A stretch of 64,000 nucleotides of DNA from a virus. The position numbers were made by a program, and so were the translations under genes. The stretch lies in the IMG/VR virus record IMGVR_UViG_3300020049_016021; one strand, 5' to 3'. Of the stretch, positions 10,129 through 54,509 are shown piece after piece (the first letter of the stretch is position 1; every line of letters starts with the position of its first letter). The notes beneath the pieces are model-generated. The model worked only from the letters and a program-made list of their open reading frames with translations, was not told the origin of the DNA and did no database searches.

Positions 10129-10158
10129 ATTTTTGTTAACAATTAAACTAAAATCTAT

Positions 10159-11556: not shown

Positions 11557-11592
11557 AAGACCATATTTTATACAACTTTTTGGTTATCACCT

Positions 11593-11627: not shown

Positions 11628-11632
11628 CTGCT

Positions 11633-13798: not shown

Positions 13799-14295
13799 CG
13801 CAGGTTCACCAAATAAAGACCCTATTTCAAAGGGAAGAATGGTATGTAGAAAAACTGCAGCCCTACACGAAGATATATAACCCGAATGCGGTGATACTTA
13901 TTCCAGATACTGCTGGGTTGAATGTGAACATGGAGTATGTGAAAACAAAGTTTCCTCCTATATTCCCGCCACAAGATCCAGGCCTTGAGTACTTTAGGTT
14001 AAATTTTTTGCATTACTATGTAAAGAAGAAAATGCCCATTCTCGGCATAGGGACTTCAAGTTTTCTTATCTTTGCTGAGGTCTGTAAGGGAAACCTAATC
14101 TTTGGAGCTGACGGATTATCCTGGGGAGCCACTAAACTCCCAAATGTAGATACAAATACTAACAACTTCGTGGGCCCCTATTGTGGTGGTTTATTGAATT
14201 TTAGTATAAATGAAGACCTTTGTGAATTTGCAGAGGCTCTCTTGCCAAGGCCGGATGGCGGAGAGGAAGTAGAACCGGCCCTTGTTTTAGTATGA
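13741..14295 (+). CDS. Hypothetical protein
   Basis: 184-aa ORF ending in TGA with ATGA overlap to the next gene. Confidence 0.45.
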   Translation: MLSTSKTLLLFEPSGSQYLTQVHQIKTLFQREEWYVEKLQPYTKIYNPNAVILIPDTAGLNVNMEYVKTKFPPIFPPQDPGLEYFRLNFLHYYVKKKMPILGIGTSSFLIFAEVCKGNLIFGADGLSWGATKLPNVDTNTNNFVGPYCGGLLNFSINEDLCEFAEALLPRPDGGEEVEPALVLV

Positions 14296-14588
14296 ACAAA
14301 TCGCTAGCGGCATATGTTAGAGACCGCTTCTGAGTACTTAGAAGAGTCAAAGACAAACAGCCTCTGAATGTTTCGTATACAATAGAAGGACTTAAATGGT
14401 CTAGTAATAGGCTAGGAAAGGCCCTCTTTTTTAAAAAAGCCATTATCTCTAATGGTAAGATTATTGGGGACTTGTCTCCATCTGAAGAGGTTTATTACGA
14501 GTTGTTTGATCCTATGGAACACAACAACTTAACTCTTCAAAGAGCCGAATTGAGGTGTTTAGACAAAGCTTTGCGGCTTTGCTACTAA
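14292..14588 (+). CDS. Hypothetical protein with one in-frame TGA (14331); first TGA-recoded gene; weak HNH-like motif (EHNNL)
   Basis: ATG 14292 to TAA 14586-88; open across TGA 14331-33 with plausible composition; missed by the standard-code track. Confidence 0.4.
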
Positions 14589-14645
14589 ATAGGCTACTAC
14601 CCGGAACCTCTAAGTGACCGGTCTTTTCACATTAATATATTTATT

Positions 14646-15248
14646 TTGGAAACAATACTTAAAAGCCTTGCTATAATTGGTTTTATGAGTCTCTGTGGAT
14701 TTTTGTTTGTGAAAAATAACACACAAATCGAGATTTTAAAAACAGAGCAAACCATACAAACTGTGCGGGCTGATTCTCTTTCTCAAAAAGTCGATTCCTT
14801 ACAGGAAGAAATAATTCGATTGAGAGAAACCCATCCGTATCAATCGCGTAAGTGAAAGAATCGGAAAACAGGCCTTTGTACGCAAGGCAACTTCTTTGGA
14901 TTTCTACTTTACACCCCTGTTGATACAACCATAAGTAAAGATTTTGCTTACGTACTTTCAACATATTCTGGGCCAAAAGCTAAGGTAACAAGTGTAAAAA
15001 GATACAATGACTCATCGTCTCGCCACTATCACGGCAAGGCTATTGATTTAGCTTGAGATGAAGAGTTAATTGCTTTTTTGATATCAGAAGAAGGTACAAG
15101 ATGGTTAACCGAACACGATATTACCCTTTATATTGAAGGGGCTCCAGGAAGTAAAAAGGTCCGAAAGTACCTAGATCATCCTCAAGCAGCACAATATTGC
15201 TTCTTTAATAAGAACGCAACGGGTGACCACATCCACATGAATATTTAA
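14646..15248 (+). CDS. M15-family zinc peptidase (VanY / L-Ala-D-Glu peptidase-like cell-wall hydrolase) with N-terminal TM; two in-frame TGA read as sense
   Basis: Motifs SRHYHGKAIDLA (SxHxxGxAxD) and GDHIH; in-frame TGA at 14853 and 15054; TAA stop 15246-48; TTG start at 14646 (ATG alternative at 14682). Confidence 0.6.
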
Positions 15249-15289
15249 CGGGATTGGGAGAGGGTAATACTTCTCCCTAATTCCAACTT

Positions 15290-15517
15290 ATGATAACTGT
15301 AATCTTTTCGGCTCTTATTGGGGCCATCGTAACGAGAACCGTTGATAACTTTCCAAAGATTGTCCGGTCTCTAAAAACATTGACACAAGAACCCGTAACC
15401 ACGGTACAAGAAAAAAAAGCACCTTCTGGGGAACCAAGTGCTGGAGAACTAGTTCAAACAGGCATAAAAAGAACGAAAAATGGATATACGGCCGTCTATG
15501 TGAGTCGTGAGAGATAG
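15290..15517 (+). CDS. Small hypothetical membrane protein
   Basis: 75-aa ORF; overlaps PolA start by about 38 nt. Confidence 0.3.
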   Translation: MITVIFSALIGAIVTRTVDNFPKIVRSLKTLTQEPVTTVQEKKAPSGEPSAGELVQTGIKRTKNGYTAVYVSRER

Positions 15518-17366
15518 TAAAATCTCTCCTTGCTCAGGGCTAGATATTACTAAGGCAATACGGGAATGAACTGGCCCTATTGCTCTAGACACCGAGACTA
15601 CCGGAGGATTAGATAACATCTTAGCTCAAAAGGTAGTATTACTACAGTTCGGAAATGCGCATGTGCAGTATCTTATTGACACACGTGTAAAAGATCCCAC
15701 CAAGCTCCTAAAAGAAATAATAAAAAGACCCATTATTGGGCACAACCTGAAGTATGATTACCAGGTCATAAAGCAGAACTATGGGGTGGAACTGAGTGAT
15801 GTATTTGATACTATGCTAGCAGAGCAAGTCTTGGACTGCGGAAGTTTTGAGGGCATACGAAAAGGCTGGTATGGACTAGCCCAAGTTTCTCATAGGCGCG
15901 TTGGCATAGATTTTTATAGTAGCCAAGGGAATTTATTTCTCCCTACGATAACAAAAGAGCTACAAAAATCATTTACAAAACAAGGTGACACCCCGTTTAG
16001 CTTAGCTCAATTATTATATGCGGCTCTCGACGTTGAGGCCACATACAGAACATATCTGGCTCAACAAGTACAAATAACCAAGGATAATCTCGAAGCGACA
16101 ATCGAGTTAGAAAATGAATATTTGAAGGTTCTGGGAGATATGGAATTAGTTGGTGTGTTTCTAAATCAGAAGCAATGGTTAGACAATTATCGTCAAACAT
16201 TGCTTGCTACTGAAAAGCTTAGAGAAATGCTTTCTGCTTATGCCCCCGTAAACTGAAATAGTTGGAGACAAGTTCTACCAATAATGCAGTCTTTCGGGGT
16301 GGACACATCCATCATAGACAAAAAGACGGGCGCGATAAAGGAATCTGTTGCTAGACAAGTATTAGAAAAGCAGATAAAGAAAGATCCCATAATTGGTAGT
16401 TACCTATCTTATAAGGAGTCCGCGAAAGAGTCGTCTGTATATGGGGAAATGTTTTTAAAGCATGTAAATCCCATATCCAATAGGGTTCATTCTTCTTTTA
16501 TGCAGATAATGCGTACGGGTAGGACATCCTCTACAAATCCGAATATCCAGAATATAAAGCGCGGCGCAATTTACCGCTCCGCTTTCCAAGCTGAAGAGGG
16601 AAATGTATTTGTTGGGGCCGACTTCTCAAACATTGAAGCAAGAATTCTAGCTGATAAATGTGGAGATGTAAACTTTAGAGCTGCCTTTGATAATGATGGA
16701 GACTACCACTTAGCGACCGCCAGATTGGCCTTTGAAGATCCAACCTTACAGAAGGATTCAGAAGAACGAAGGTTAGCTAAGAATATTAACTTCAGTATTG
16801 CCTATGGGGGTGGTGCTGGAACACTTTACGAAAAGTATAGGATTCCTTTGAAACGAGGAAAAGAGCTGATAGAGAAGGTTTATAAGGGATTTCCAAAGCT
16901 AAGACCCTATTTCGATAGACAAGGGCAACTCGCAAAAGAGAATGGGTACATAGTGGCAAACGAATTAACTAAGAGAAGAAGTTATATTCCTTTCTTTGAT
17001 AAGTATAAAACCATGAAGGCCCATATAGAGACCTTTACACGGAGAGGTTGGGAACCACATCCACATGTGGTACGAGATTGTAGAATGTTAGAGGCAAAAA
17101 TTCAACGTTGGGCACAGAACATACCGATCCAAGCTACTGCTGCTGACGTAGCAAAGCAAGCCGGAATATATTTAAGGCAACGCTCAAAAAAGATTGGATT
17201 CGATATTGTGATATTTGCGCACGATGAATATGTAGTGGAATGTGCAGAGTGGAAGAAAAAGGCTGTAAGTTTAGCGCTAGAGCGCTCTTGCAGCGAGGCT
17301 GTTAACAAATTCTTAACCATAGCTGTTCCCGCTGTTGCGGAAGATAGTACACACTGAAAAAAATAA
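15480..17366 (+). CDS. polA: Family A DNA polymerase with 3'-5' exonuclease domain; contiguous only if four in-frame TGA are read as sense
   Basis: Exo I motif LDTETTGG upstream of the track ORF start; exo II IGHNLKYDYQV; Pol motif B RRLAKNINFSIAYGGGAGTL; motif C FAHDEYVVEC; in-frame TGA at 15501, 15567, 16254 (between the two track ORFs, same frame) and 17355; TAA at 17364-66 in TAATG overlap with the next gene. Confidence 0.85.
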
Positions 17367-18463
17367 TGACATTAGAAGCCACGTTTATTTACATTATGGT
17401 CGCCGGATTACTTGGCGTCGTAAGCTACTTTGGATATCAAAAAGCAAAAAAAGATCCTGAAAATGCGGGGCTTGAACCAGGAGTAATTCTTGTTCGTTCC
17501 TTTATTAAATATTCTCTGACATACTTTATTGTTTTCCAGGCTTCAGCTATGCTTGCAGAAGCAGCTCTCCTGGGTTCAGTTCAAGAAGAAAACATGAACG
17601 TAGCTGCTCGTATGGGCAGTCACATAGCAATGGCAATGGTAGGCGCTTTTGGTGCCTTCGCCATGACAAAATACTTTGGAAGTTTCATATCCGTAATAAC
17701 AACAAAAAGACCCCTAGGCATTTGGCTGGGCTTGGCTAGCACAACTTTTATGCTGAGTGGTGTAAGTTTGGTTTTGACCATTGGATCGCCTATCTACAAT
17801 CTTATGGCTATGACAAATGCTCTTCATCAGGGAGTTCAACTTGAAGTATGGTGGGCAAGTTTTCAAGTTGGTTTGGGATTTAAACCTCAAGCGTACTTAG
17901 ACTATGTGATAGCGTTGAATAAGCTTCCGGCTAACTATGCCCCATATGATTCCCTTAAAACGGGTATGGTGACTTCATTAGGTTTGACAGCCTTTCACAT
18001 CCTAATTACCTTCTGGGAAATCCTAACGGTATTAATGCTGGCTCTAACCCATAAAGGTGTAAATCATGCTTTGCTAGGCAACTTATTTGATTTGGTTGTT
18101 GATGCACCCGCTAAGGATTCAAAAGCAAAAGATGACGCAAAGGACAAGAAGCCAAAAGATGACATAACTGAAGAAGCAAGGAAAGCAAAAGATTTGATAG
18201 GTAAACTGTTGACTTATGCTGAACTTGATAAAGATGTTGTTGCTTCATTTTCTGAGAAACTGTTTCCGTATATTCATGACAAAAGCACCCAACAAAATAC
18301 GGTTGCTAACTTAGCGGAAGCTATGGATTTGCTCGTGAAATATGAATCAGCAAGAAACTCGTCTCCTCAAGCTAAGGCTGGTTTACGTACTCAATTTCAA
18401 GCCTTGGTTACTAAATGGACTAAGGGCGGCTTAACTCTGCCTAAAGCAGCAAAAAAGATGTAA
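17366..18463 (+). CDS. Polytopic membrane protein with Lys/Asp-rich C-terminal region
   Basis: 365-aa ORF with several hydrophobic helices; ends ...PKAAKKM-TAA containing the A_AAA_AAG heptamer. Confidence 0.55.
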   Translation: MTLEATFIYIMVAGLLGVVSYFGYQKAKKDPENAGLEPGVILVRSFIKYSLTYFIVFQASAMLAEAALLGSVQEENMNVAARMGSHIAMAMVGAFGAFAMTKYFGSFISVITTKRPLGIWLGLASTTFMLSGVSLVLTIGSPIYNLMAMTNALHQGVQLEVWWASFQVGLGFKPQAYLDYVIALNKLPANYAPYDSLKTGMVTSLGLTAFHILITFWEILTVLMLALTHKGVNHALLGNLFDLVVDAPAKDSKAKDDAKDKKPKDDITEEARKAKDLIGKLLTYAELDKDVVASFSEKLFPYIHDKSTQQNTVANLAEAMDLLVKYESARNSSPQAKAGLRTQFQALVTKWTKGGLTLPKAAKKM

Positions 18464-18541
18464 GCCGAGGAGAACCTAGTTGTGAGTGGTGTGGGGGAAT
18501 ACACGGCAATATTGGCCTTGAATTAATCCACACCTTCTCAC
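18451..18541 (+). promoter_or_regulatory. Candidate programmed -1 ribosomal frameshift site (A_AAA_AAG) with downstream stem-loop
   Basis: Slippery heptamer 18451-18457 in the zero frame of gene 17366..18463; the -1 frame is open into the zinc-ribbon gene; hairpin GTGAGTGGTGTGG(18483-95)/CCACACCTTCTCAC(18528-41). Confidence 0.3.
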
Positions 18542-18555
18542 GCCCTCCTTGGCTT

Positions 18556-19173
18556 GTGGGATTACAAGACGAATGCCAGATTTGTCATACAATAACCTGG
18601 CTTGGTTTTGTTCGTGATAAGTACGCTTGTTGTGAAAGCTGCTATTACAGAATAGAAAAACCAGAAAAGATAGTAACGAGAATATGTGCACGATGCTTTG
18701 AGACTAGAAACTTAAAGAAGACATGCAGTAATTGTTCTTCGGTGATTGAAGAATATGCTAACAATAGTTTACTTTGTGAAGACTGTAAAAATCTTGAAGT
18801 ATTTCGTCCTGCTAGCACAAAAGTGCAAAAATGCCTGGAATGCGGAATTCTGTCTCACCTTAACAATGAGGGTCTCTGCATGAATTGTTTTAACAGGTAC
18901 AACGTGCAACCACCAAAACGCTGCAAGTCTTGTGGAAAACCTGTCATACGGGGAGCCGCTTTTTGTGATGAATGTGTTAGCTTAGCTTCAAGACGTACAC
19001 AAAGAGTGTGCCACGGCTGTGGTCAAACACTGTCAACTGCGAGCCAATATGATTCATTCTGCCATAAATGTAAAATAAATTTAGAGCGAGGAGTTTGTAC
19101 AAATTGTTCTGAAAACACACTTGTTGCAGATAACCACGGTTGGTGCACAAAATGTCAAGTAGATAATGGATAA
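18556..19173 (+). CDS. Multi-zinc-ribbon protein (about 13 CxxC motifs)
   Basis: GTG start at 18556; the frame is open 30 codons further upstream with no start codon and includes another CxxC (CEWC). Confidence 0.55.
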   Translation: MGLQDECQICHTITWLGFVRDKYACCESCYYRIEKPEKIVTRICARCFETRNLKKTCSNCSSVIEEYANNSLLCEDCKNLEVFRPASTKVQKCLECGILSHLNNEGLCMNCFNRYNVQPPKRCKSCGKPVIRGAAFCDECVSLASRRTQRVCHGCGQTLSTASQYDSFCHKCKINLERGVCTNCSENTLVADNHGWCTKCQVDNG

Positions 19174-19183
19174 GAGAGATAAG

Positions 19184-20350
19184 ATGCAGGCTGAAGCTGT
19201 TCAGGCCTGAAAAGATGCAAATAACTGGGGAACCATATTAATTTATACGGGAGGCGGCAAAACTCGTTGTGGACTTATGGCTTTTGAAGCTTTAGGAACA
19301 CCACGAACATTGATAGTTACTTCTCGTAGACCAATATTGGACCAGTGAAAAAATGTTGTTGTTGGGCCCGATGTCACATACATGTGCTTAAAGAGTGCTT
19401 ATCTCCATGAAGGTGAGTATGATTTAGTTATAGTAGATGAGGTGCATCGGGCTCTTTCAAAAGAGTACAGAAGATTGTTCACAAATATAAAGACAAGGGC
19501 TCTTTTGTGTTTAACCGCCACACTACCAGAAGACCCAGAATACGTGAACTTTCTGGAGAAGATTGCCCCAACTGTATACGAAAAAGAGTTATCTGGTGCT
19601 ATTGACGAAGGTCTTGCTCCAAAGGCTCAAATATACAATCTAGCTGTTCCCCTTAGTAAAGAGGTTGCTGGAAAGTATAAAGTTTTTGATAGTAAATTTA
19701 CTCAGAGCATAATAAAACTTACTCGATTTAGGAGTGAGCAACTCCATCTTAGAGAGTACCCATCTATATTTGAATTAGCCAGGGCAGCCCAACACCGAAA
19801 CTTTGAAAAAGAGGTGCAAATGGCCTGTAATGCTTACTGGGCAAGTATGACTATGCGCAAGCAAGTCTTGTACGAAAATCCTGCAAAAATAGGCGCGGTA
19901 ATTTCAATATTGGAGAAATATCCCCCGAGTGCAAAGTGGATCATTTTCACAAAAACAACTGCCTTTGCGGAGAAGATAGCTGCACAAGTACCAAACAGTG
20001 TTGTGTACCATTCAAAGCAAAAAACATCCCAAAGAGAACAAGTTTTAAAGGCTTTTAGTGCTGGGGATAAAACAAGATTAATTGCTGTTGACGCTTTAAA
20101 TGAAGGCTTAGATGTGCCAAGAGTATTTGGCGGAATCTGTGCTTCAGGAGTATCAACGTTATTAACAAATCGTCAACAGCTAGGCAGGATTATTCGCCCT
20201 GAAGAAGGTAAAACGCCTATATTTTTTAATTTGTACACGATCGGAACTGTGGAGAAGACTTGGATAGAGAAAAAATTCATCAATTCTAAATTAACACCAA
20301 TATGGCTAAACCATTTGGCCGAGGTGCAAACCGGCTTACGCAGTATATAA
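19184..20350 (+). CDS. SF2 DEAH-box helicase; two in-frame TGA read as sense
   Basis: ATG 19184; motif I IYTGGGKT, motif II LVIVDEVH, motif III LTATLP, motif VI QQLGRIIR; in-frame TGA at 19208 and 19346; the track only shows the C-terminal 322 aa. Confidence 0.8.
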
Positions 20351-21471
20351 GGATGAGGGGAGCATTGCTTCCGAGCCAACTCGACGAACACCGAGTAGGT
20401 CAGGCTTGTGAAGAGCAATGTGTTTTTTGTTTAAATCAGCATACTTATATTCCTTTATTTCATTACCCTTTAGGTGGTGGTGAAACACCAGAACGTGTTC
20501 CAGGAGTATTTATCTGTGATGATTGTGATAATAAAATCGAAGCAAAACTAAGAAGTGGCACAAATACGAAAACCATAGGTCTGTTTAATGACATACAAAC
20601 ATTTGTGTCGCAGGGGGTTTTCCCTGACCACACTTATGAGCATTATCAACACCTAAATGAGGAGATTGAGCCAAACGCAAAGGAAAAAAAATTAGCTTGT
20701 ATTTTCTGTAAGGTGCAACAACGTATAAATGTATCTGATCCTTACACGAAGGAGTTTTGTCACGAGATAGATACTCCTATGGGAGCCACTCAAAATTGGC
20801 TTGATGGTGGTAAGGTGCTTATATGCTTGTCTTGTGTAAAACTCATTGAGGATGAATTGAAGCAATTCAGAGTAGGAACTATCGAGGACTACGTAGAAAC
20901 ATTTACAGAAGTAGCTATTTGTCCTGTTTGCGATGGAAACTATTTGATTACAAACTTTGAAGACGAAGTTAGGACGCAAAATGGTACCTTATTTAAGCAT
21001 ATGTGTGGAGCTTGCACGTATGATCTGTTAACAAGTGATTCACGAAAACTCCATTATGCTGGACACGATATGCGCCAACTATATAAGGCGCGTACTGATA
21101 ATTTTGAAGCTAATACAGCGGTTATTCGTCATAAGGAAGAGATATGTGAATCTTGTGGACAGTACATTCTTATTGATCTTACATTGATTCCAGAATATGT
21201 AGTGGCACAGTATTTCGACACGGACAGTAATTACATTTGTGAATGCTGTTCAAAATATGGTGGGGGATATCCACCGTTAGTTATGAAACTCGAGGCACAC
21301 ACCCTACGCTTTTATAAGGACGATACTGGAAAATTTACCCTGGTATATTGGTCAACTGGGGACTCAAAGGTTCTTTCTGTAAGAGAAAACGTGTCGCCAG
21401 AAATAGCCAAGCAAGAACTTTTTGCTCTTTTACCTTCAACCAGTTTAATTGATGGGAACCTTGATGTATAA
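20302..21471 (+). CDS. Multi-zinc-ribbon protein (8 CxxC motifs)
   Basis: 389-aa ORF with paired CxxC motifs. Confidence 0.5.
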   Translation: MAKPFGRGANRLTQYIRMRGALLPSQLDEHRVGQACEEQCVFCLNQHTYIPLFHYPLGGGETPERVPGVFICDDCDNKIEAKLRSGTNTKTIGLFNDIQTFVSQGVFPDHTYEHYQHLNEEIEPNAKEKKLACIFCKVQQRINVSDPYTKEFCHEIDTPMGATQNWLDGGKVLICLSCVKLIEDELKQFRVGTIEDYVETFTEVAICPVCDGNYLITNFEDEVRTQNGTLFKHMCGACTYDLLTSDSRKLHYAGHDMRQLYKARTDNFEANTAVIRHKEEICESCGQYILIDLTLIPEYVVAQYFDTDSNYICECCSKYGGGYPPLVMKLEAHTLRFYKDDTGKFTLVYWSTGDSKVLSVRENVSPEIAKQELFALLPSTSLIDGNLDV

Positions 21472-22182: not shown

Positions 22183-22697
22183 TGGAAAAACGAATATTCT
22201 CCGGCACACTAAAAACAAAAGACCTGCAAACAACCTTTTGGGCAGACTCTTATAGCGTTATTTTCTCTATTCGTTACACTCAAAAGGGGCGGTCACATCT
22301 ACTATTGCATTCCTTTCCTTATTTATCTTATTTTCAATGTATTTGGGATGCAACCCAATTAATGGAGCGGATACAGGAATACTTTGATAGCACAGAAATG
22401 TCCTTAGAAGTCAATGAGGAATATGCAGACACAAAGCAGATACACTACTCAAAACATATTTTAAATTATGTCTCAATTACCCTTAACGCTGCCTATATAC
22501 AGGCAATTGAAAGAAGACAGGATCTCGGTCGAATCATACCTCGTGCTGTGGTACCTAAGCACGGGAGAGTTAACACAACCGAGTATCGAAGAAAACTTGA
22601 TAATAGAAAATCTAATCTCCCAAAAACTTTGCACAGAAACACACTTGTTGGATGCTGGTCACGTTTTTCTCTCACGCTACTTAACCCTCCTGCCTAA
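22182..22697 (+). CDS. Hypothetical protein (C-terminal 60 aa are Arg-rich and may be out of frame)
   Basis: 171-aa ORF overlapping the next gene by 230 nt in another frame. Confidence 0.35.
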   Translation: MEKRIFSGTLKTKDLQTTFWADSYSVIFSIRYTQKGRSHLLLHSFPYLSYFQCIWDATQLMERIQEYFDSTEMSLEVNEEYADTKQIHYSKHILNYVSITLNAAYIQAIERRQDLGRIIPRAVVPKHGRVNTTEYRRKLDNRKSNLPKTLHRNTLVGCWSRFSLTLLNPPA

Positions 22698-23025
22698 CGA
22701 AGCCACAGCTACTTACACAGAAGATTTTGAGTTGTTCTGGAAAACCTTCCCAGCGTCCGATAAGTGAGATCGATTTGGAGAAACAAGAAAATTAAGGCAG
22801 AACAAAAAGGAAACCTATGCGCAATATTTGTTAGCATTAAATAGTCTGTCTGCTCCTGAACTACAGGAAGCTCTTGAAATAGAGATAAAAAATAAGAAAG
22901 AGTCTCCATCTCTTTCCAACCCTTTTAAATACATGAAAGCTTCAGTCAATTGGTTAAGAGATAAGGAATATGAAAACATAGTTTTTCCTGTATATACTTT
23001 AGAAGAAGATAATGGATTGTTATAA
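22468..23025 (+). CDS. Hypothetical protein (possible replisome-organizer-like); one in-frame TGA
   Basis: Track ORFs 22468..22767 and 22828..23025 are in the same frame joined across TGA 22765 with no other stop; TAATG overlap with the DnaB-like gene. Confidence 0.4.
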
Positions 23026-24023
23026 TGGAATATAGACACATTAGTTATGGAGTTAACTCAACCTTAGAATACATAAAGAAGAGACAGAGTGGCGAGATAA
23101 AATCCTTGAAGACTTCATTTTCTAAACTGAACTCTGTGCTTATGGGAGGCATTGACTGAGGAAGAATATTTACGATTGTGGGGCAGTCGGGCTCTGGAAA
23201 ATCTACAATCCTTGAGCAACTAAAGAAAGATTTTATTGATCTTAATAAACCTGATTTTGAGATTCTTTCCTTTGAATTTGAGATGCTAATTGAAGATCAG
23301 CTAGCTCGTTATGTGTCTTCTTTAGGAAAGTACACTATAAAGGAATTGTATTCTGCGGCTAGCCCATTGTCTAAAGAAGCATTTGATGAGGTAGAAAAAG
23401 CGTTAGAGAAGCGAAATTCTGTTCCAGTTTATTACGTTGACAATCCTGGCACACCATCCCAAATACAGGAAACTATTCTAACCTTTATATCAGAGAGGCA
23501 GTTGCTCTCAAAGAATCTAGGATTAGTAATCACAATTGACCACATACTTTTGACAAAAGGTAGAACAGGTGACAACGAGAAAGAGATTGTAGATGCTTTG
23601 ATGGATGTCTTGAATGATATAAAAAAATATTGTGCTCATATAGGCCTACGTTGCCTCATTATTAGTTTGGGCCAATTAAACAGGGATATCGAACGGGTTG
23701 AACGTGTAGAAAATCCGTTATACCATTTCCCAAATAGAAATGACATATTTGCTGCTTCGTCTGTTTACCATACGTCAGACTATGTTTTAGTGTCCCATAG
23801 ACCTATAACAGTAAATGGTATGAAGCGAACCATAAATGGTGTAGAAAAAGGTTACGGGCCCCCAAGAACTCAGTTTCCAAATGGCTGACCATTAGTATAC
23901 CCAAAGGAGCCTAGTAGACACATGGTCTATTGGCACCTCATAAAAGAAAGATTCGGAAAGCCTGGGGTAATTGCTTTGGCTGAGAATTTTGCACACTATA
24001 AACTAGAAGAAGTAGATTTATAA
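23025..24023 (+). CDS. DnaB-like replicative helicase (RecA-fold ATPase domain); two in-frame TGA
   Basis: LNSVLMGGID-W-GRIFTIVGQSGSGKST (H1/Walker A), LVITIDHILL, SLGQLNRDIERVE (DnaB H4 SQLNR); C-terminal KERFGKPGVIALAENFAHYKL after TGA 23886 resembles the DnaB C-terminus; TGA at 23157 and 23886; TAA 24021-23. Confidence 0.8.
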
Positions 24024-24025
24024 TT

Positions 24026-24991
24026 ATGAACTTAGTACAAATAACAGGACTACCTGCAACAGGTAAAACTACAGGAGCACGTTTCTTAGACCCGAAGAGC
24101 ACTTACTACATTGATGCGGATGGAAAAGGTCTCTCTTGGAAAGGATGAAAGAACGCTTATAATGCGGAAAATAAAAACTACGCGAAGACGGCCGATCCCA
24201 CAACAATATATAAAGTGGTAAAGGCTGTTAGTGAGACACGCCAAGATATCAACTGTATTGTTATAGACACTATAAATGCTATGATGACAACAGAAGAGAT
24301 GGCTATCCTAGAATCTCCTTCAAGAGATAAGTGGGCGGATCAATAGGTTAGGTCCGGTACCTGTCTAATTGCTGGAATATCCTTAGAGTTTATTATACTA
24401 CAAAGTAGCTTTGAAATAAAGGCAAGCTTGATAAGTTAAAAAATAATAGAATTGGACAATCAGCAGCGAAGCCCCGAACAGGGGAACGTTCAGAGATCAT
24501 CCCTCCGAAGGGGAGTAGGGCGACTTTTAAAGCCCGAAATGGCAGGACTTTGCAATTGTGTTTACACACTAAAAGATACTAGTATAAGCGCAGAATCTTA
24601 GCAAAGAAGATATGATCCACGCCCCATAGAAATATGGGGAATAGTGCTAGCTGTAGAAGTATGAAATCTATATAAGTTAATACGTGAAATTAAGCGTGAT
24701 GATTTTGTAGTATTCGTATTAGCGCATTGCGAGGCCTATGACGTAAATGGTATTACCCATTATCGTACTATGGTCAATGGAAAGAAGCTTTCAAAGATTA
24801 ACTTGAATGCCTTTCTATCTTATAATTTATACACAAAGATAAGTGCTGGAGCTGATGGTAATTTCAACTATGAGTTGATAACCAAAAGTGATGGTACCAA
24901 TGAAGCTCGTTCAGTTATGGACGTGTTTCCAAGCAAAATTGAAAATAATCTAGAGAATGTTCGAACCGCTGTAATTGCAGCAGAAAATTAA
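24026..24991 (+). CDS. Sak4-like (AAA_24) recombination ATPase, split by a group I intron: exon 1 24026..24340, exon 2 24647..24991; in-frame TGA at 24146 and 24662
   Basis: Walker A GLPATGKT, YIDADGKG, CIVIDTINAMM in exon 1; VVFVLAHCEAYDVNG...NLNAFLSYNLYTKISAGADGNF in exon 2; both exons in the same frame class; intron length 306 (multiple of 3). Confidence 0.7.
24341..24646 (+). ncRNA. Group I self-splicing intron (IA-type core; no homing endonuclease ORF)
   Basis: Conserved elements Q-like CAATCAGCAGCG (24457), R GTTCAGAGATCATCC (24488), S AAGATATGATCC (24607) with P7 GATCA/TGATC; P5 hairpin CCCCGAACAGGGG; P9 hairpin CCCCATA-GAAA-TATGGGG; proposed P1: exon CGGAU(24336-40) with IGS GUCCG(24357-61), U-G at the splice site; P10: exon-2 CUA with IGS UAG; intron ends with G 24646. 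Confidence 0.7.
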
Positions 24992-24996
24992 ACGAA

Positions 24997-25587
24997 ATGA
25001 GTTTACAAGCAAAACTATTTTTGAACAGTGACAACGGCACAGGTGGCACAAAGATTCCAGTAGGAATTCACGAAGGAACCGTAGTTTTCAGTGGCCTTGT
25101 CACAGATCAAACTTGGACAGATATCCTGTTCTCCGAGCCAACCACTGGGAGAGCAATCCACAAAAGGCTGTTCATGCCTACTGGTAGTAAGCCGAAGGAT
25201 GGCGAAACTATTCAGGACGCATATAACAGGGAGCAAAAACGTAACCTAGGTCAAATCACTGATTTGATGCTAGTATTTCTCGGACCAGAGATCGTCGAGA
25301 CCTTCGAGGCTACAGATTATAAGGAGTTTGTTGCGAAAGCAGCTCTTCTTTTAGGTGCACATAAAAATGTACCTGTTAATCTGAAAGTAATTCCAGACTA
25401 TAAGGAGAAAATGTATCCCGAGTTGCCTTACTCAAGGTATGTAGAGCGGCACAACCCAGGGAGTGAAACAGGCCTAAAGTTATCAAAGGATGATAATGCG
25501 GCAATCTCCGAAATGGAAATGAAGCGTGCTGCCAAGTCGAACGCCGCAGGCAGTGCCTCTTCAGAGGACTTAGAGTCATTGGTCTAA
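24997..25587 (+). CDS. Hypothetical protein (possibly SSB-like; acidic C-terminal tail)
   Basis: 196-aa ORF next to the Sak4-like gene; C-terminus ...SSEDLESLV. Confidence 0.4.
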   Translation: MSLQAKLFLNSDNGTGGTKIPVGIHEGTVVFSGLVTDQTWTDILFSEPTTGRAIHKRLFMPTGSKPKDGETIQDAYNREQKRNLGQITDLMLVFLGPEIVETFEATDYKEFVAKAALLLGAHKNVPVNLKVIPDYKEKMYPELPYSRYVERHNPGSETGLKLSKDDNAAISEMEMKRAAKSNAAGSASSEDLESLV

Positions 25588-25660
25588 GTAGCTCACTAAT
25601 CACAATTACCACCGTTAGGCGTGGTTGGGTAGAAATGAGGTTTTTACAGAGCTAAAATCT

Positions 25661-25697
25661 AGGGGTAGTAGGCTACAATCTGCTACCCCTTTTTTTA
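25661..25697 (+). terminator. Rho-independent terminator
   Basis: Stem GGGGTAG.../...CTACCCC followed by TTTTTTT. Confidence 0.5.
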
Positions 25698-25705
25698 TTT
25701 ATCTT

Positions 25706-26008
25706 ATGTTAACACTAGAATACTATTTCAAGCATCTTGCCAAATTGCAGGCAGTACTTGCTTCTTCACCTGATCTCCTAGAAGAGGTTATGGTTGCTGA
25801 ATTTTCAGCTGATTTTATCAACGAAAAAAATGAGCGGTGTTACGTAAGTCGTCAACACGTAGCTTTCAATAAAACCTTTAGGCTCGATGCACATAGTCAG
25901 ATTGAATGCTATTTAATCGAAGTTTACAAGGCGAAAACAATCACAAAAGTCACAATTCATAGAGATGCTAAAGGCAAAGGAACACACGAACATACTTCAA
26001 AGGATTAG
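25706..26008 (+). CDS. Small hypothetical protein (start moved downstream of the terminator)
   Basis: ATG 25706 in frame with track ORF 25625..26008, whose N-terminus would span the terminator. Confidence 0.4.
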   Translation: MLTLEYYFKHLAKLQAVLASSPDLLEEVMVAEFSADFINEKNERCYVSRQHVAFNKTFRLDAHSQIECYLIEVYKAKTITKVTIHRDAKGKGTHEHTSKD

Positions 26009-26918
26009 TGTCCTAGGTGCTTTTGGGTATTATTTGAATTCAGAAATAGTCTTTGGTCGACATTATAAGAATCCGCTAAGAGGAGACAAGAATCCAACAT
26101 GTTCATTTTGAATTGGAAATTCAAATACTCCGCTATTTGTAGACTTTGGCACTGGAAAAAAATATACGCTAATTGATTTTGTTAAAGAAAAATTTGGACT
26201 ATCTTATTCCGAAGCAATTGCCAAGATTGAAAAGGATGCCCATTTGTTCCAAGATCAAGAGGTCGAAGATAAACCCGAGAAACCTGTATTCTCCTTTATT
26301 CCTGGGGATATTGAGGATGGTATGCACTATTGGAAAAGGTACAGAATACCAAAAACAATAGTAGCAAAATACTGCTTTATAGTAAAGAGTCTCTATAAAA
26401 ATGAATCGTTTGTAGGACGTAGCAGTAAACAAAATCCTCTCTTTGCCTATAAGTTCATTTCTGGTAGAATAAAACTTTACCGACCACTCAGCCCTGATAA
26501 GCAAAAGAAATGAGGTGGAAATGCCACAGCGGAAGATATTGGAGGATTGTACCAATTACCTCAGAGAGGACAACTACTGTTTATCACATCTTCTATAAAG
26601 GATATAATGGTCTTAAAGCAGCATGGTTTTAATGCTGTGGCCCTAAACGGGGAAGGGTATGGTCTTAGTTCTGATTCCTACGAAACCATTGCTCCGTACA
26701 TAACGGGTCTAAGAAAACGGTTCAAAAAGATCGTTATCTTCCTAGACGGAGACGCGGCCGGAGTGACGTTTGCAAATAAATTATCGCTTCGTCTGAAGCT
26801 TCCAAACATACACTTAGATCCAGTGTTTAAGGATATTTCGGATTACCAAAAACACTTTGGAGTTGTCCAAACAAACAGAAAAATAAAAAAACTATTATCC
26901 AAATGCTTAAGAACTTAA
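25965..26918 (+). CDS. DnaG-type DNA primase (zinc-binding region plus TOPRIM domain); two in-frame TGA
   Basis: ATG 25965; HYKNPLRGDKNPTCSF-W-IGNS, GTGKKYTLIDFVKEKFGLSYSEAIAKI, TOPRIM LLFITSSIKD...IVIFLDGDAAG; TGA at 26109 and 26514; the track splits it into 26244..26513 and 26547..26918. Confidence 0.75.
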
Positions 26919-27280
26919 GTAGACTTGAAAAATTGAACCTGGTAATTATTACCCTCTGCGTAGGTCTGTCTATCGGAGTGGCCGCACTAGTACCTGAAAT
27001 AGCGAAAACAACCAAAGCCATCGAAGAATTGCAAGAAGTGGTTAGAAGCAGTCCAAAATCATATCGAATAGATATTGTAGAATTTGCGAAGGACTCAATT
27101 AGTATGAGTTTTTCAAACCATATTGAGACAGTGAACTTAGAAGAAGCGAAGAAACACTTTAAAACACAGTGCTTTACAACCTGTGATGAGATGGATTGCC
27201 CGGACAGTACCATCATAATGTTAATTGAAGAGACCCCTTATTCACAACGAATCATAGTAGATTCGATACTTTACCAATAA
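26903..27280 (+). CDS. Hypothetical membrane protein
   Basis: 125-aa ORF with N-terminal TM. Confidence 0.45.
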   Translation: MLKNLSRLEKLNLVIITLCVGLSIGVAALVPEIAKTTKAIEELQEVVRSSPKSYRIDIVEFAKDSISMSFSNHIETVNLEEAKKHFKTQCFTTCDEMDCPDSTIIMLIEETPYSQRIIVDSILYQ

Positions 27281-27982
27281 ATGACAAAGCACGACAATCT
27301 CTCCAATTTTGTTGGGGAGTCTTGGTTAACACCTTTAAGTGGGGCTTTCGATTACTTCAAGGAGAAAATCATCCCTTATCTAAAGGCCGAAAAGGAAAGG
27401 CTGGAAATACGTAACCTGGAATCACCGGAGAGCAAAAAACAGACTATATATCCTTCTACTCTATCAAACGTTTTCAGGGCTTTCAAAGAGACCCCATACA
27501 ATACCGTTAGAGTAGTTATTATTGGCCAAGATCCTTACCACGATGGTTCCGCTACAGGAATAGCTTTCGACAATTCAAAAACGAAACGTCCCTCCCCATC
27601 TCTTAGGAATATTCTGAAGGAGATAGTGAAGGATTGCGGGGAAACCCAGGCTACAGAGAATGTGTTGAGTTATTTGGAGCACCTTCCTTCACAGGGGGTG
27701 CTCCTTTTAAACACAGCATTAACTGTTGTAAGCAAGGAACCCTTGAGTCATGTGCCTATATGGGCTCCCTTTACCGAGGAAGTCATAAAGGTACTAAATA
27801 AGCGTGACCAGATCGTATGGGTACTTTGGGGGACAAAAGCTCACGCCTTTGAACCAAAGATAAATCCACGCCATGTCATAGTGAAGGGAGCCCACCCATC
27901 TCCTTTCTCTTACCATCTATTCAAGGACAAGAGGTTTTTTGAAATAATTAATTCAAGTTTAAAAAATAAAATACGATGGTAA
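27281..27982 (+). CDS. ung: Uracil-DNA glycosylase (family 1 UNG)
   Basis: Motifs VVIIGQDPYH, LLLNTALTV, VWVLWGTKAH, GAHPSPFS. Confidence 0.85.
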   Translation: MTKHDNLSNFVGESWLTPLSGAFDYFKEKIIPYLKAEKERLEIRNLESPESKKQTIYPSTLSNVFRAFKETPYNTVRVVIIGQDPYHDGSATGIAFDNSKTKRPSPSLRNILKEIVKDCGETQATENVLSYLEHLPSQGVLLLNTALTVVSKEPLSHVPIWAPFTEEVIKVLNKRDQIVWVLWGTKAHAFEPKINPRHVIVKGAHPSPFSYHLFKDKRFFEIINSSLKNKIRW

Positions 27983-28704
27983 AATTCGATCAGAAAACAC
28001 GGGCAAAGTACCCGAACATCAACCAGCAGATGCTCAACCCTGCTTACAACATAAGTGGCTGTTTTGAGGACTCACGATTTCCTCCAGAGCACATTCAAAA
28101 AGTCCACATTAATCCGCCACCAAGTGTTCGCCTTACTCAAGACAAAGAGGCGCTACTTCTCCATTTAGCAGCAGAAGGATACGTTGTCCCAGATCATGCA
28201 CCAAAAACAGCCTTCATTACTGATGGAATGTTCGATCTTTCTTCTTTTGAGGAATTCTATGAGTCTTTGGAAGATTTCATCATTATGGAAATAGCCGAGT
28301 CTTTGGCAAAAGAGATTGGGGACTACGCAGAAATTCTGGCTCTTATAGGAGCAGCAGAACTTCCGGGGGGATCCTTGTTGAAGCTTCCACAGGGATACCA
28401 AAGTGCGCAAGTGCACGTTATCCCAAACGCGGCTGGTAGAGCATTAAATCTGGGAACAAAACAGACATCCAATGGTGTGCTATCACATAGTATTCCGTCT
28501 GCTTGGGACAGGGATGCCGCCTTTGCTATGGCCAAAAACAGTGTTGATGAAATTGGATTGGATTATGGTCATGTGACCTTGATTCAGACGCCGAAAGAAG
28601 AAATGCTGATAGCCAACATTGAAACCATGCTTCGCCCCAGCGACATTATTGCTATAAGGGGCTATGCAGACATGCTAAACAAAGCATTGAATGGAAAAAA
28701 ATAA
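27976..28704 (+). CDS. Hypothetical protein
   Basis: 242-aa ORF. Confidence 0.5.
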   Translation: MVKFDQKTRAKYPNINQQMLNPAYNISGCFEDSRFPPEHIQKVHINPPPSVRLTQDKEALLLHLAAEGYVVPDHAPKTAFITDGMFDLSSFEEFYESLEDFIIMEIAESLAKEIGDYAEILALIGAAELPGGSLLKLPQGYQSAQVHVIPNAAGRALNLGTKQTSNGVLSHSIPSAWDRDAAFAMAKNSVDEIGLDYGHVTLIQTPKEEMLIANIETMLRPSDIIAIRGYADMLNKALNGKK

Positions 28705-29176
28705 TCAGAAGGGCAGAAATGACCTTGAAAAATATTGTTGAGTGCTATTAGAGGAGGCAGGTATTCAGTTTGATTACGAAAGAGCGATCGAATTAGTGCC
28801 TGCTTTCCTTTTCAAAGGTCTAAACATTGAAAAAACAAAAAAAGGCCTTGTTGAAAAGAAATCATCCTACAAGAACATCATATACAGCCCAGACTTTATG
28901 GGTGAGGATTGAGTAATAGAAACGAAAGGACTAAGAAGACCTGACTTTGATTTGAGATGAAAGCTCTTTAAGTATTTATATAGAAACAAGAAAATAATAC
29001 TCCTAATGCCTGGCAATCAAGCTCAAGTAGCTGTTTGTGTGGAAATTATAAAAGAATGATTAAATGGAAAACGAGATCAAAGATCCTATAGAAGAATATT
29101 ACAAATCACCAAGGATTTCCAACAGTCTGCTAAAAAGCCTTCAAAATCCAAGAGCAGCAAAATTAAAAAGGGATAA
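28691..29176 (+). CDS. PD-(D/E)xK nuclease-like protein; four in-frame TGA; 3' end uncertain
   Basis: ATG 28691; motif YSPDFMGEDWVIETKG (PD...ExK); in-frame TGA at 28739, 28910, 28958, 29057; basic low-complexity tail after 29060; TAA 29174-76. Confidence 0.5.
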
Positions 29177-30089
29177 TCCAGAACTATATGAGTGAAACAG
29201 CCCAGCACTGAGAATAGGTTCAGCCGTTGACTGTTTACTTACCGATCCTACCTCTTGGGAGAAACGTTTCAAGGTCCTCACTATAAACAAGCCCTATGGA
29301 TTCATGGGAAGTTTTGTGGAAGCTTTACCAAAGGGGATACAAGTGGACTCTCCGGCCGAGGATTATGAGATGGCTTATTGGGCATCTGGATATAAAATGT
29401 CTAGAGATTGGGTGATAAAAAAGTTTTGAAGTACACCAGACGCTGTTGAGTACTACTACACTCAGTCTGATCCTAAGGATATAACAGTGCTCTCAAAAGA
29501 CGAGCACGAGGCCGCAATTAAAGCGACAGAGTTAATACTGGCCTCTCCTTTTGCAAAGCCTTATTTTGTAAAATCCGGAATAACAGAGGAACTATTACAT
29601 CAGGTTCCTATCTATTTTGAACTTGAAGGCCAGGAATTCAAGGCCTTGCTTGACGGGATAAGACTAAACCATAAAAACAGGACAATAGAACCATTTGACT
29701 TAAAGACAACTGGAAAATCTGTTTATGACTTTCCACAAAGTTACTTAACTTTTGGTTACTACACTCAAGCAGCTCTTTACGATCTTGCTATAAGGACAAA
29801 AGAGAGTCCTGTTCTTCAGTATATTGATGAGGGTTACATTATAAAGGATTTTGTATTCATTGTTGCAGAAACAAAGACATCATCCACAAGTCCTGCATTA
29901 ATATATACAACCACTCAGCATGAAAGAAATTGTGGATTAGAGGGTGGTTTCGTCGATGGAAAATACTACAAAGGAATATATCAATTGTTAGATGATTACC
30001 TATGGTACAGTAAAAATGACCTATGGGTATATCCAAAAGAAATTCACGAAAATAATGGGCAAATACCACTAAAGGTCTTTGCTAATTAG
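29064..30089 (+). CDS. PD-(D/E)xK exonuclease (YqaJ / lambda-exo / Cas4-like fold); two in-frame TGA
   Basis: ATG 29064; 342 codons; catalytic-like DGIRLNHKNRTIEPFDLKTT; in-frame TGA at 29193 and 29427; the track shows only the last 200 aa. Confidence 0.6.
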
Positions 30090-30090
30090 C

Positions 30091-30645
30091 ATGAAACACA
30101 CTATAACAGCATTATTCCTCACTCCTGTCTTAGGGCTAAAGCAAAAGGCGCCAATAAACATGTATGATCCGGCATATTACCTTAGCACATACTCTGGAGA
30201 CAGTCATAGAGAGGAATACAAGAACTGAAAGAGCGGAGATTTTATTCTGCTCGAATACAACGAAACAATTCCGCAAACCCTAACCGAATACTTTCAGAGC
30301 CACCCTAGCTTTGTGGAGATGTACGAGCCGCAGAAGGCCAAACGTATCTTCGTATTTCGGTTACCGAAGGAGGTTAAAGAGGGATACACCTTTAAAATTT
30401 TGGAAGGTAAGTATTCAGAAGCGGATAGAAAAGTGGTGAACAAATACTTCCCAGCAGATCCTAGTCACTCACTCTACGGGAATCGGTTAATTTTCGATAA
30501 GAGTGAGCTTTGGCGACAAGAGTGGGAGAAAAAGGGTGTCTCTCTCCCTGAAGATGCAGAAGTGTATTCGAAACCATTTGCCAGAAATGAATTATACGGT
30601 TATGTACCAGAAACAAAACAAAGAAGTGCTAAGGTCTCTTTATAG
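30091..30645 (+). CDS. Hypothetical secreted protein; one in-frame TGA
   Basis: ATG 30091 with signal-like MKHTITALFLTPVLG; TGA 30226; joins to track ORF 30313..30645. Confidence 0.45.
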
Positions 30646-31060
30646 CGAAGGAGCAAAATATATAGGGATACTTCAGCGTTTCTTCAGTCCTGAGCGCTGA
30701 GCGCTAATTAGCCAAACCCAATCTCAAAGGGAAGAGGCTTTAAAGGTCCTAGGTATTACAGAAACAGACCTCACAAGAATCGAGGAAGAAAAGACGTTGG
30801 GAAGACGCGAAGTTATTCGTAGAGCAATTGCTCATTCTTCACCGTCCTTCGGAAGATTTCTAACCCAGGCCTACACTTATTATGAGGACCACAAAAAATC
30901 AACAGCTGTAGATGCTGATAATAAGGCTATTATCCTTGAAAAGATGAAGCAAAAGATGTCAACATGGAAACCCGAAACTTTAACAGCGGATGACCTTGCG
31001 TCTATAAATGTAGATCTTTACTTATTATCTAAAAACTCCCATAACAAATCTACAAGATAG
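30602..31060 (+). CDS. Hypothetical protein; one in-frame TGA (start uncertain)
   Basis: Track ORFs 30503..30700 and 30797..31060 are in the same frame across TGA 30698; ATG 30602 chosen to limit overlap. Confidence 0.4.
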
Positions 31061-54507: not shown

Positions 54508-54509
54508 AA

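Follow-up and report, generated by a model that had tools for sequence, protein, structure and literature searches.

The 64,000-nt stretch of DNA analysed here (the window), from the IMG/VR virus record IMGVR_UViG_3300020049_016021, contains a module of replication genes at 14292-31060 that are broken by in-frame TGA codons when read with the standard code. This raises the question of whether TGA is a sense codon in this module and, if so, which amino acid it specifies, what decodes it and how it is treated elsewhere in the genome. The window represents approximately two-thirds of a ~100-kb crAss-like phage genome that uses two genetic codes. The reading favoured by the sequence comparisons, to which we assign a probability of about 0.8, is that TGA specifies tryptophan (Trp) in the replication, recombination and lysis-type enzymes and in TerL of this phage, and is decoded by the phage's own intron-split suppressor transfer RNA (tRNA).

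In-frame TGA codons and the residue they specify

A preliminary description of this DNA listed 24 in-frame TGA sites, of which 23 were TGA in the frame of a long open reading frame (ORF) bounded by TAA or TAG; the coordinate of the 24th was mis-typed by three nucleotides, the codon lying at 26511-26513 and not at 26514. Across 25 gene models covering 14292-31060, the coding frame held 24 TGA, 0 TAA and 0 TAG in 5,394 codons, in comparison to 88 and 197 TGA, 186 and 153 TAA, and 157 and 77 TAG in the two non-coding frames. Given these hundreds of off-frame stops, the in-frame TGA pattern is therefore not a product of chance. Gene re-prediction with TGA as sense yielded longer ORFs (mean length 168 to 220 amino acids, aa) and raised coding density in 14296-31060 from 0.654 to 0.871, whilst at 1-14295 it brought no improvement (0.871 with the standard code vs 0.841). 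All 24 stop codons in 14292-31060 were TAA (18) or TAG (6), as originally stated. The TGAs were not confined to 13 consecutive genes as had been proposed; they were carried by 12 of the 25 genes, interspersed with 13 TGA-free genes. These 12 genes, the intron found in one of them and one further gene of the virion module are:

14292..14588, plus strand: 98-aa protein, first recoded gene; sense TGA 14331 (codon 14); ATG overlaps the preceding TGA stop (ATGA)
14685..15248, plus strand: 187-aa protein; hydrophobic N-terminal segment; motif SxHxxGxAxD ... DHIH; sense TGAs 14853, 15054
15480..17366, plus strand: DNA polymerase A (PolA) with 3'-5' exonuclease, 628 aa; sense TGAs 15501, 15567, 16254, 17355
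19166..20350, plus strand: SF2 helicase (ResIII and Helicase_C), 394 aa; sense TGAs 19208, 19346
22468..23025, plus strand: 185-aa protein, no function assigned; sense TGA 22765
23025..24023, plus strand: DnaB-like helicase, 332 aa (Pfam DnaB_C); sense TGAs 23157, 23886
24026..24991, plus strand: Sak4-like single-stranded-DNA-annealing ATPase, two exons (24026-24340 and 24647-24991); sense TGAs 24146, 24662
24341..24646, plus strand: group I self-splicing intron in the Sak4 gene, 306 nt, ORF-free (Rfam RF00028, 64.4 bits, E 4.8e-14 at 24311-24639)
25965..26918, plus strand: DnaG-type primase (Toprim, weak Pfam match), 317 aa; sense TGAs 26109, 26511
28691..29176, plus strand: DUF1064/Holliday-junction-resolvase-like nuclease, 161 aa (phrog_190); sense TGAs 28739, 28910, 28958, 29057
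29064..30089, plus strand: PD-(D/E)xK-like DUF3799 protein, 341 aa (Pfam PF12684); sense TGAs 29193, 29427
30091..30645, plus strand: 184-aa protein, no function assigned; sense TGA 30226
30554..31060, plus strand: 168-aa protein, no function assigned; sense TGA 30698
34257..38780, minus strand: 1,507-aa virion-module protein; sense TGA 38748-38750 (codon 11)

With X placed at the TGA sites, Pfam domains were found to cross the joins in PolA (exo1 and DNA_pol_A), the SF2 helicase, DnaB_C, Toprim and DUF3799, in agreement with the earlier proposal that reading TGA as sense restores full-length proteins; the Toprim matches are weak and fall under the curated cutoffs. In the 628-aa PolA ORF, DNA_pol_A_exo1 spans residues 29-192 and DNA_pol_A residues 254-617, whilst the standard-code annotation of a public copy of the window DNA (L001) presents PolA as pieces of 197 and 357 aa, with comparable fragmentation in other genes. 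The Sak4 gene contains, besides its TGAs, the group I intron, the borders of which (exon 1 last base T, 24340; intron last base G, 24646) were set by intron-less homologues in two relatives (L010 and L005); the spliced 219-aa product matches the Sak4 family phrog_2872 over its full length (E 1.8e-38). For the 14685..15248 product the peptidase motif was present, and searches of Pfam, PHROG and PDB gave zero matches; the M15 assignment made previously is thus reduced to a possible LAS/M15-type cell-wall peptidase, by motif.

To identify the residue, orthologues were aligned codon by codon between the window and two relatives. The closest, IMGVR_UViG_3300020036_009452 (loci L003, L010, L019 and L021), has 55-72% protein identity to the window, and the second, IMGVR_UViG_3300035438_001058 (loci L005 and L044), has 48% identity in PolA. 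The codons found opposite were:

Window TGA, closest relative (n=25): TGA 16, TGG 6, other 3
Window TGA, L005 (n=15): TGA 5, TGG 7, other 3
Window TGG, closest relative (n=46): TGG 36, TGA 8, other 2
Window TGG, L005 (n=34): TGG 21, TGA 3, other 10

A window TGA was thus opposite TGA or TGG at 22/25 and 12/15 sites, and a window TGG opposite one of the same two codons at 44/46 and 24/34; there were 11 reciprocal cases in which a relative has TGA at a window TGG. One of the other codons (TGC, against the closest relative) is at 28688, ahead of the start codon, and those remaining opposite a window TGA encode His, Phe, Leu, Ile or Lys, and never Gly or Ser. As a control, TGA in spurious off-frame ORFs faced CGA or AGA.

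The interchange extends over most of the recoded genes. TGG was found in relatives at the PolA TGA sites, in L005 at 14853, 15054 (both TGA in L010) and 26511, in L010 at 19208 (TGA in L005) and 23886, and in both relatives at 24146. The 161-aa DUF1064 gene has zero TGG; its TGA 28910 is opposite TGG in L021 and its other three are opposite TGA. Conserved TGAs were also seen at 26109 and 26511 in the closest relative, at 29427 in L021, at 14331 within a product 86% identical to an L010 ORF across that site, and at 30226 within a product 69% identical to an L021 ORF. TGA 22765 is opposite TGA in L010 and CAC in L005, whilst 30698, in a product 49% identical to its L021 counterpart, is opposite ATT. 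Window TGGs at 22549 (L010), 30024 and 30965 (both L021) are opposite TGA.

Standard-code proteins gave the same answer. In an alignment of 96 full-length PolA homologues, the distant members of which use the standard code, TGA 16254 falls in the motif INWNSPKQ at a column occupied by W in 50, Y in 20 and L in 16 of the 96. TGA 17355, formerly taken for a terminator with a backup TAA, is a sense codon at an invariant C-terminal Trp (W in 88/88 ungapped homologues). Three close homologues (P0003, P0007 and P0009), as annotated, end just ahead of this residue, which suggests that they too carry TGA there. TerL, encoded outside the window, contains two sense TGAs, and its codon 251 is TGA here, TGG in 19 and TGA in 7 of 26 relatives. 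On these alignments TGA is a synonym of TGG in this phage, as the preliminary description had thought most likely; its alternative of Gly columns found no counterpart, as no GGN codon was opposite any window TGA.

Distribution of TGA across the genome

The genes of the window form a co-directional plus-strand array from 1 to ~34.3 kb, followed at 34.3-64 kb by very large minus-strand ORFs of up to 4,095 aa. Its crAss-like character is indicated by CrAss_Ring_1 at 63371-64000, CrAss_Ring_2 and Ring_1 in the right flank, and the giant virion-module ORFs (1,148 to 4,095 aa); Crass_capsid was found in a relative with which the phage has a 17-kb segment in common. The earlier comparison to recoding in crAss-like phages was accordingly apt, and a tRNA(UCA) was also found (see below). 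A megablast search of 14292-31060 against 50,697 phage records gave zero matches, and a scan of metagenome contigs returned solely a 32%-identical locus, by which the genome was not extended. Codon usage divides the window into blocks as follows:

Block A, 1-14295, plus strand: 4,360 codons; TGG 53; sense TGA 0; stops TGA 11, TAA 7, TAG 5
Block B, 14292-31060, plus strand: 5,394 codons; TGG 44; sense TGA 24; stops TAA 18, TAG 6
Block C, 34257-64000, minus strand: 9,914 codons; TGG 69; sense TGA 1; stops TAA 5, TAG 2
Rest of the late (virion) block, 38780..64000, minus strand: genes of 1,148, 4,095, 632, 917 and 1,406 aa and the start of tail ring protein 1

TGA accounts for 35% of Trp codons in block B, 1.4% in block C and 0% in block A (Fisher tests on TGG and sense-TGA counts: B vs C, p = 5.7e-8; B vs A, p = 1.9e-7). 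Block A comprises 23 co-directional genes, including those for two glucosaminidase-domain proteins, a MoxR-like ATPase, a vWA protein and an AAA ATPase. Eleven of the 23 end in TGA, with six ATGA stop/start overlaps at 6327, 7454, 9144, 12334, 13180 and 14292. If read as sense, the block A TGAs would lie at 0.82-0.99 of ORF length, and similarity to L010 of the closest relative ceases exactly there; the TGAs of block B are spread from 0.01 to 1.0 of gene length. Because they lie near ORF ends, occur in ATGA overlaps and mark the end of homology, we conclude from sequence that TGA is a working stop in block A. The boundary between the blocks is itself a gene overlap: TGA 14293-14295 ends one gene and, 36 nt on, TGA 14331 is codon 14 of the next, the N-terminus of which is conserved across it.

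The distances from the block A TGA stops to the next TAA or TAG (16, 4, 21, 21, 6, 30, 73, 38, 2, 3 and 4 codons; median 16) are not clearly shorter than the ~14 codons that we estimate ourselves to be expected, and as they are unremarkable for the base composition no claim of backup stops is made. A scan for sigma-70 promoters and terminators at the A/B boundary gave values near those of shuffled sequence (7 vs 7.6 promoter-like and 5 vs 2.8 terminator-like sites). The base following the sense TGAs of block B was A in 13, G in 9, C in 1 and T in 1, compared with G 16, T 12, A 10 and C 6 after TGG in the same genes, and A 5, T 4 and G 2 after the block A stop TGAs. In this small sample, there is a hint that the strong UGAU termination context is avoided at sense TGAs, i.e. 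of competition with release factor.

The recoding was described as confined to one module, which holds approximately. A sense TGA occurs at codon 11 of the 1,507-aa virion gene, where the N-terminus MICPNKNSAE[TGA]KEL aligns to MICPNKKSPEWQKL (TGG) in L021; no alternative start is present in the first 60 codons, and the single ATG lies ahead of the TGA. Beyond the two TGAs of TerL, relatives show further sense TGAs in their late genes. The remainder of the late block, 38780..64000, has zero TGA and TAA or TAG stops only, and hence reads alike in either code; the portal, capsid and tail genes of the closest relative are essentially TGA-free as well.

As to the gene content of these blocks, the glucosaminidase-domain genes at 4390-5193 and 9454-9933 (plus strand) and the MoxR-like ATPase/vWA pair at 5293-7457 (plus strand), linked by an ATGA overlap, are unusual for an early block. 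The 4,095-aa ORF (42220-54507, minus strand) has as its sole Pfam match an AAA_30/AAA_19 P-loop near residue 1,250, in the N-terminal third, and its neighbours (1,148, 1,406 and 1,507 aa) have zero; no polymerase signature was evident by Pfam. These ORFs presumably correspond to the block of virion cargo and RNA polymerase that crAss-like phages typically have.

An intron-split tRNA(UCA) as candidate decoder

ARAGORN made zero tRNA calls in the window and ~19 kb of flanks of the same phage, a false negative for a split gene, and zero over ~96 kb of this genome, for which Rfam gave only a weak tRNA-like element with anticodon CAU. This element (L014 3158-3222, minus strand, ~6.5 kb left of the window) scores exactly at the Rfam gathering score (29 bits), has almost no D-arm and is missed by ARAGORN; with its CAU anticodon and degenerate D-arm it was rejected as the suppressor. 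A TerL query retrieved 50 related loci, many of which harbour a tRNA(UCA) 3.5-4.5 kb upstream of TerL, several with a transfer-messenger RNA (tmRNA) beside it. At the syntenic place in L023, Rfam identified a tmRNA (76 bits) and, 0.7 kb on, a group I intron followed by an HNH ORF. The intron match (RF00028, 3623-3815, 50 bits, equal to the gathering score, E 1.6e-10) covers the full model (1-253), and the intron flanks in L023 and L076 are two tRNA halves. A search with the HNH protein led to contig Ga0206648_1000078 (58,413 nt), which carries L076 and also L014 and is 99.87% identical to window 1-10745. The tRNA with anticodon UCA that the preliminary description had suggested seeking elsewhere in the genome thus has a candidate, arranged with its neighbour as follows:

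L076 8856-9117 (= L023 2685-2946), ~-12.2 kb from the window, late-gene strand: tmRNA (RF00023)
L076 9769-9804, ~-13.1 kb, late-gene strand: tRNA 5' exon
L076 9805-10526, late-gene strand: tRNA intron
L076 10527-10589, ~-13.9 kb, late-gene strand: tRNA 3' exon

The 5' exon (AGGGGTGCTTCACTGTTGTAGAACAGGACTAGTCTT) and the 3' exon (CAAAACTAGACGG...CACCCTTGCCA, with a G directly before it) are separated by 722 nt inserted between positions 34 and 35, with the HNH ORF behind the catalytic core. When joined (...GACTAGTCTT/CAAAACTAGAC...), they fold into a cloverleaf of 99 nt. Its acceptor stem has 7 bp, its anticodon stem is a perfect 5 bp and bears the loop CUUCAAA (anticodon UCA), and its variable arm is long; A1-U72, G5-C68, G73, U34 C35 A36 and an encoded CCA are present. 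A1-U72, G73 and anticodon C35 A36 are identity elements of the bacterial tryptophanyl-tRNA synthetase (TrpRS). The joined tRNA aligns with the uninterrupted tRNA(UCA) of relatives, with an invariant CTTCAAA loop and compensatory changes at 13/22 pairs, and its exact exon-exon junction was found uninterrupted in three IMG/VR contigs. This intron-less allele is ~92% identical (hand count from a printed alignment), with compensatory changes at pair 1-72, which is G1-C72 in the relatives, and in the variable stem. The spliced tRNA and the intron-less allele at its L048 position both escape ARAGORN, which accounts for the earlier negatives. The gene adjoins the phage tmRNA, upstream of a GroEL-like gene and TerL, and judged from sequence it is most likely the decoder of TGA. 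Its decoder function and Trp identity are drawn from the codon statistics and not from the tRNA itself, because the shape of the latter is non-canonical.

The phage tmRNA (RF00023, 76 bits, E ~1e-28) has a long tag reading frame ending ...AVYA, and a tmRNA recurs beside tRNA(UCA) in L024, L026 and L044 (Rfam) and in L032 (ARAGORN call only). A link to stop-codon suppression is possible through the rescue of ribosomes after readthrough. No TrpRS or release factor turned up in the annotated parts of the genome. The GroEL-like chaperonin (534 aa, Cpn60_TCP1; L074 12511-14115 and L075 11319-12923) has its nearest named cellular homologues in Bacteroidota, at 41-43% identity (Flavobacteriaceae, Galbibacter, Foetidibacter and Ferruginibacter), which offers a sequence-based clue to the host phylum.

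Several other elements were noted around these genes. A second copy of the tmRNA 3' end (T-arm and acceptor, AAGGGTTCGACTCCCTTCATCTCCA) is present at L023 3480-3510, 540 nt downstream and just before the tRNA 5' exon, and could be an insertion remnant. At L023 5812-5918 lies a 107-nt tRNA-like element whose T-arm (GGGTTCGACCCCC) is canonical and whose extra arm is long; its acceptor stem (AGAAGTG/CACTTCT) has 7 bp, and the tmRNA model matches it weakly (22.5 bits). A Pistol ribozyme match was obtained at L014 6825-6881 (plus strand), ~2.8 kb left of the window (35.6 vs gathering 34.5 bits, E 0.014). In the divergent region between the gene arms, a 620-nt piece is flipped relative to its neighbour (L072 49-669 vs L014 3837-4457), so that the segment is invertible or the assembly has folded back. 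Contigs L015, L016 and L017 of this phage, which come from different samples, all end ~2.9 kb left of the window start, and this common end point could be a genome terminus. Amongst the relatives, one sublineage (L032, L034, L035, L036 and L070) has TGA at TerL column 1379, an otherwise invariant Gly (DENG to DEN[TGA]), and a different tRNA(UCA) of 94 nt with G1-C72. This is probably a single event, and raises the question of whether all such suppressors insert the same amino acid.

The alternatives to a Trp-decoding phage suppressor differ in what they leave unexplained. That the TGAs are sequencing or assembly errors, or mark decaying pseudogenes, would account only for the fragmented standard-code gene calls; it is practically negligible, as the same TGAs recur in independent assemblies from several samples at 99.3-99.9% identity (flank locus L012 is 99.3% identical to the window), 16 aligned sites are TGA in the closest relative as well, and in-frame TAA and TAG are wholly absent. 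A different residue at TGA, be it Gly (code 25), selenocysteine or Ser, Leu or Tyr, has in its favour that ARAGORN labels the relatives' tRNAs 'SeC', that these have a long variable arm and long D-stem, and that one sublineage has TGA at the Gly of TerL. Against this stand the two-way TGA/TGG interchange with both relatives, the lack of any Gly, Ser or Cys codon opposite, and the sites at invariant-Trp columns of PolA and TerL; Leu, Ser and Tyr columns are far commoner, yet are not those struck, and the proposal is highly improbable. Code 25, used by Absconditabacteria/Gracilibacteria phages, was rejected on the absence of GGN opposite any window TGA, and selenocysteine because the 24 sites are spread over 12 unrelated enzymes and all fall on positions of Trp, no SECIS (selenocysteine insertion sequence) search having been made. 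Readthrough by a near-cognate host tRNA-Trp(CCA), or inhibition of release factor 2 (RF2) by the phage, would make the split tRNA-like gene a decayed relic, which would suit its non-canonical T-loop and D-arm, its ARAGORN negativity, an intron with homing endonuclease that could signal decay, and published surveys in which most TGA-recoded phages have no suppressor tRNA. We nevertheless regard it as unlikely, since compensatory changes maintain the stems across relatives, the anticodon loop is invariant, the 3' CCA is encoded, the intron is placed so that splicing restores a perfect anticodon stem, and efficient decoding would be required for essential enzymes that between them carry at least 24 TGAs, with four in a single protein of 161 aa.

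It could also be supposed that no switch occurs, the host itself using code 4 (UGA as Trp) and the whole phage being written in that code. All sense TGAs fit Trp, and most block A TGA 'stops' are followed by TAA or TAG, 5/11 within 6 codons. The next TAA or TAG is, however, not significantly near, and the 4,360 codons of block A are free of internal TGA although 11 of its genes end at TGA, six of these in ATGA overlaps and with homology to relatives ceasing at the TGAs. The phage moreover has its own tRNA(UCA), and the nearest cellular homologues of its GroEL are from Bacteroidota, a phylum not known to depart from the standard code. The share of TGA among Trp codons is furthermore just 35% (block B) and 1.4% (block C), as opposed to 80-90% in true code-4 genomes (Pfennig et al.). 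A code-4 host is therefore very unlikely.

Some observations weigh against a phage suppressor reading TGA as Trp, or limit its reach. The TGAs at 32916, a 25th position confirmed as a TGA codon, and at 34200 lie at gene ends and may be either stop or sense codons. The spliced tRNA is missed by ARAGORN, with a T-loop of TGCAAGT in place of TTCRANT, a 4-nt D-loop and a long variable arm, an arm that tRNA-Trp normally lacks. It is physically linked to the window by one metagenomic contig; the 17-kb segment that includes it is 100% identical to a co-occurring relative and may come from a strain-level chimera. A 99,991-nt contig of this phage from another sample lacks identical HNH and GroEL proteins, and the tRNA allele may differ between strains. 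Coverage of the genome extends to all but about 5-10 kb.

If the phage suppressor operates as proposed, tRNA(UCA) would self-splice, be charged with Trp and compete with RF2 at UGA. Early in infection the naive host would translate block A normally; a rising level of the spliced suppressor would then allow TerL and the enzymes of replication, recombination and lysis to be made, whilst the virion genes would work under either code. Phage phi14:2 transcribes its rightward replication arm early, with the virion RNA polymerase that it injects, and with phi14:2-like timing the translation of the replication genes here would wait for the suppressor. The analogy with phi14:2 is the only source for this temporal order, and it also counts against it, in that the whole replication arm is early there, which sits uneasily with a suppressor on the opposite arm. 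The restriction of TGA to enzymes rather than virion proteins has two candidate reasons that the data do not separate: gating, in which translation is tied to the code switch, or cost, in which incomplete suppression means that TGA is tolerated in low-copy proteins and purged from abundant or very long ones.

A more elaborate and doubtful scenario is an intron-gated switch, in which the tmRNA and the self-splicing suppressor tRNA(UCA) would together shift the infected cell from code 11 to code 4. TerL and the enzymes of replication, recombination and lysis, all dependent on UGA being read as Trp, would be turned on, and early genes whose TGA stops lie in ATGA overlaps for termination and reinitiation would be turned down. 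The virion genes would have been written code-neutral, and the tmRNA would rescue ribosomes overrunning host and early-gene TGA stops. If true, DNA replication and not virion assembly would be the gated step, the reverse of the published model.

Comparison with known systems

Group I introns occur in bacterial and plastid tRNA genes, such as tRNA-Leu(UAA). The intron described here resembles these in its anticodon-loop site (34/35), the U.G pair at the end of P1 that defines the 5' splice site and the terminal G before the 3' exon, and differs in residing in a phage stop-codon suppressor tRNA and in having an HNH ORF behind the catalytic core. In the code 4 of Mollicutes, UGA is likewise read as Trp by a tRNA(UCA), but there this holds genome-wide, most Trp codons are TGA and RF2 has been lost; in this phage at most 35% of Trp codons are TGA, and genuine TGA stops occur on the same strand.

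TGA-to-Trp (code 4) recoding is established in crAss-like phages (Yutin et al. 2021, PMC7886860), including 'Lera' and other Zeta-group phages (PMC12386605). The present phage shares with these its Crassvirales-type genome, the TGA at Trp positions that, with the standard code, interrupts the genes for TerL, helicase and polymerase, a tRNA(UCA), group I introns, homing endonucleases and recoding of part of the genome. In those phages recoding is 'mostly in late genes', mainly structural, whereas the virion genes here contain 1 TGA in 9,914 codons and the load falls on replication, recombination and lysis-type enzymes and TerL; the suppressor is also distinct in being intron-split and ARAGORN-negative with a long variable arm. 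The published pattern of recoded late structural and lysis genes with standard early and replication genes was thus not observed, the TGA share being 35% in the replication block and 1.4% in the virion block; that pattern usually accompanies membership of the family but does not strictly define it.

Block-wise dual-code phages have been described (Ivanova 2014; Borges et al., bioRxiv 10.1101/2021.08.26.457843; Mgcod, bioRxiv 10.1101/2022.06.29.495998), for which stop-codon recoding was proposed as a translational timer (bioRxiv 10.1101/2021.08.26.457843; 10.1101/2022.06.29.495998). Like them, this genome has a standard-code block, a recoded block and a block readable in both codes. In those phages the switch is at a strand change, the early/replication block is dual-coded and structural and lysis genes use the alternative code 'in all cases'; here, the switch lies within one co-directional array at the ATGA overlap 14292-14295, and the virion block is code-neutral. 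The 'code change module' of Jade phages (Borges et al.), consisting of a suppressor tRNA, TrpRS and release factor 1 upstream of the lysis cassette, is similarly a compact standard-code set of translation-related genes able to change UGA reading. The neighbour of the tRNA here is instead a tmRNA, the tRNA needs splicing, and the annotated parts are devoid of TrpRS and release factor.

A search of a library of papers found no report of an intron-split suppressor tRNA, nor of a tmRNA partner, and most TGA-recoded phages are without a detectable suppressor (PMC7886860; PMC12386605; bioRxiv 10.1101/2021.08.26.457843; 10.1101/2022.06.29.495998). The recoding itself is known; what is unusual here is the inverted gene distribution and the hidden suppressor tRNA. 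Intron-split or otherwise non-canonical tRNAs provide a concrete and searchable explanation for recoded phages in which no suppressor has been detected, and the recurrence of tmRNA beside the suppressor across the lineage suggests that the toolkit for changing the code includes the rescue of ribosomes. In practice, PolA, helicases, primase and TerL of this phage family come out in fragments when annotated with the standard code. In the current model the new code locks away the late structural and lysis genes, whilst in this phage it is the replication enzymes that are locked and the virion genes that are readable either way; either the gated step varies by lineage, or the TGA load of a gene mainly follows the amount of truncated product that it can bear.

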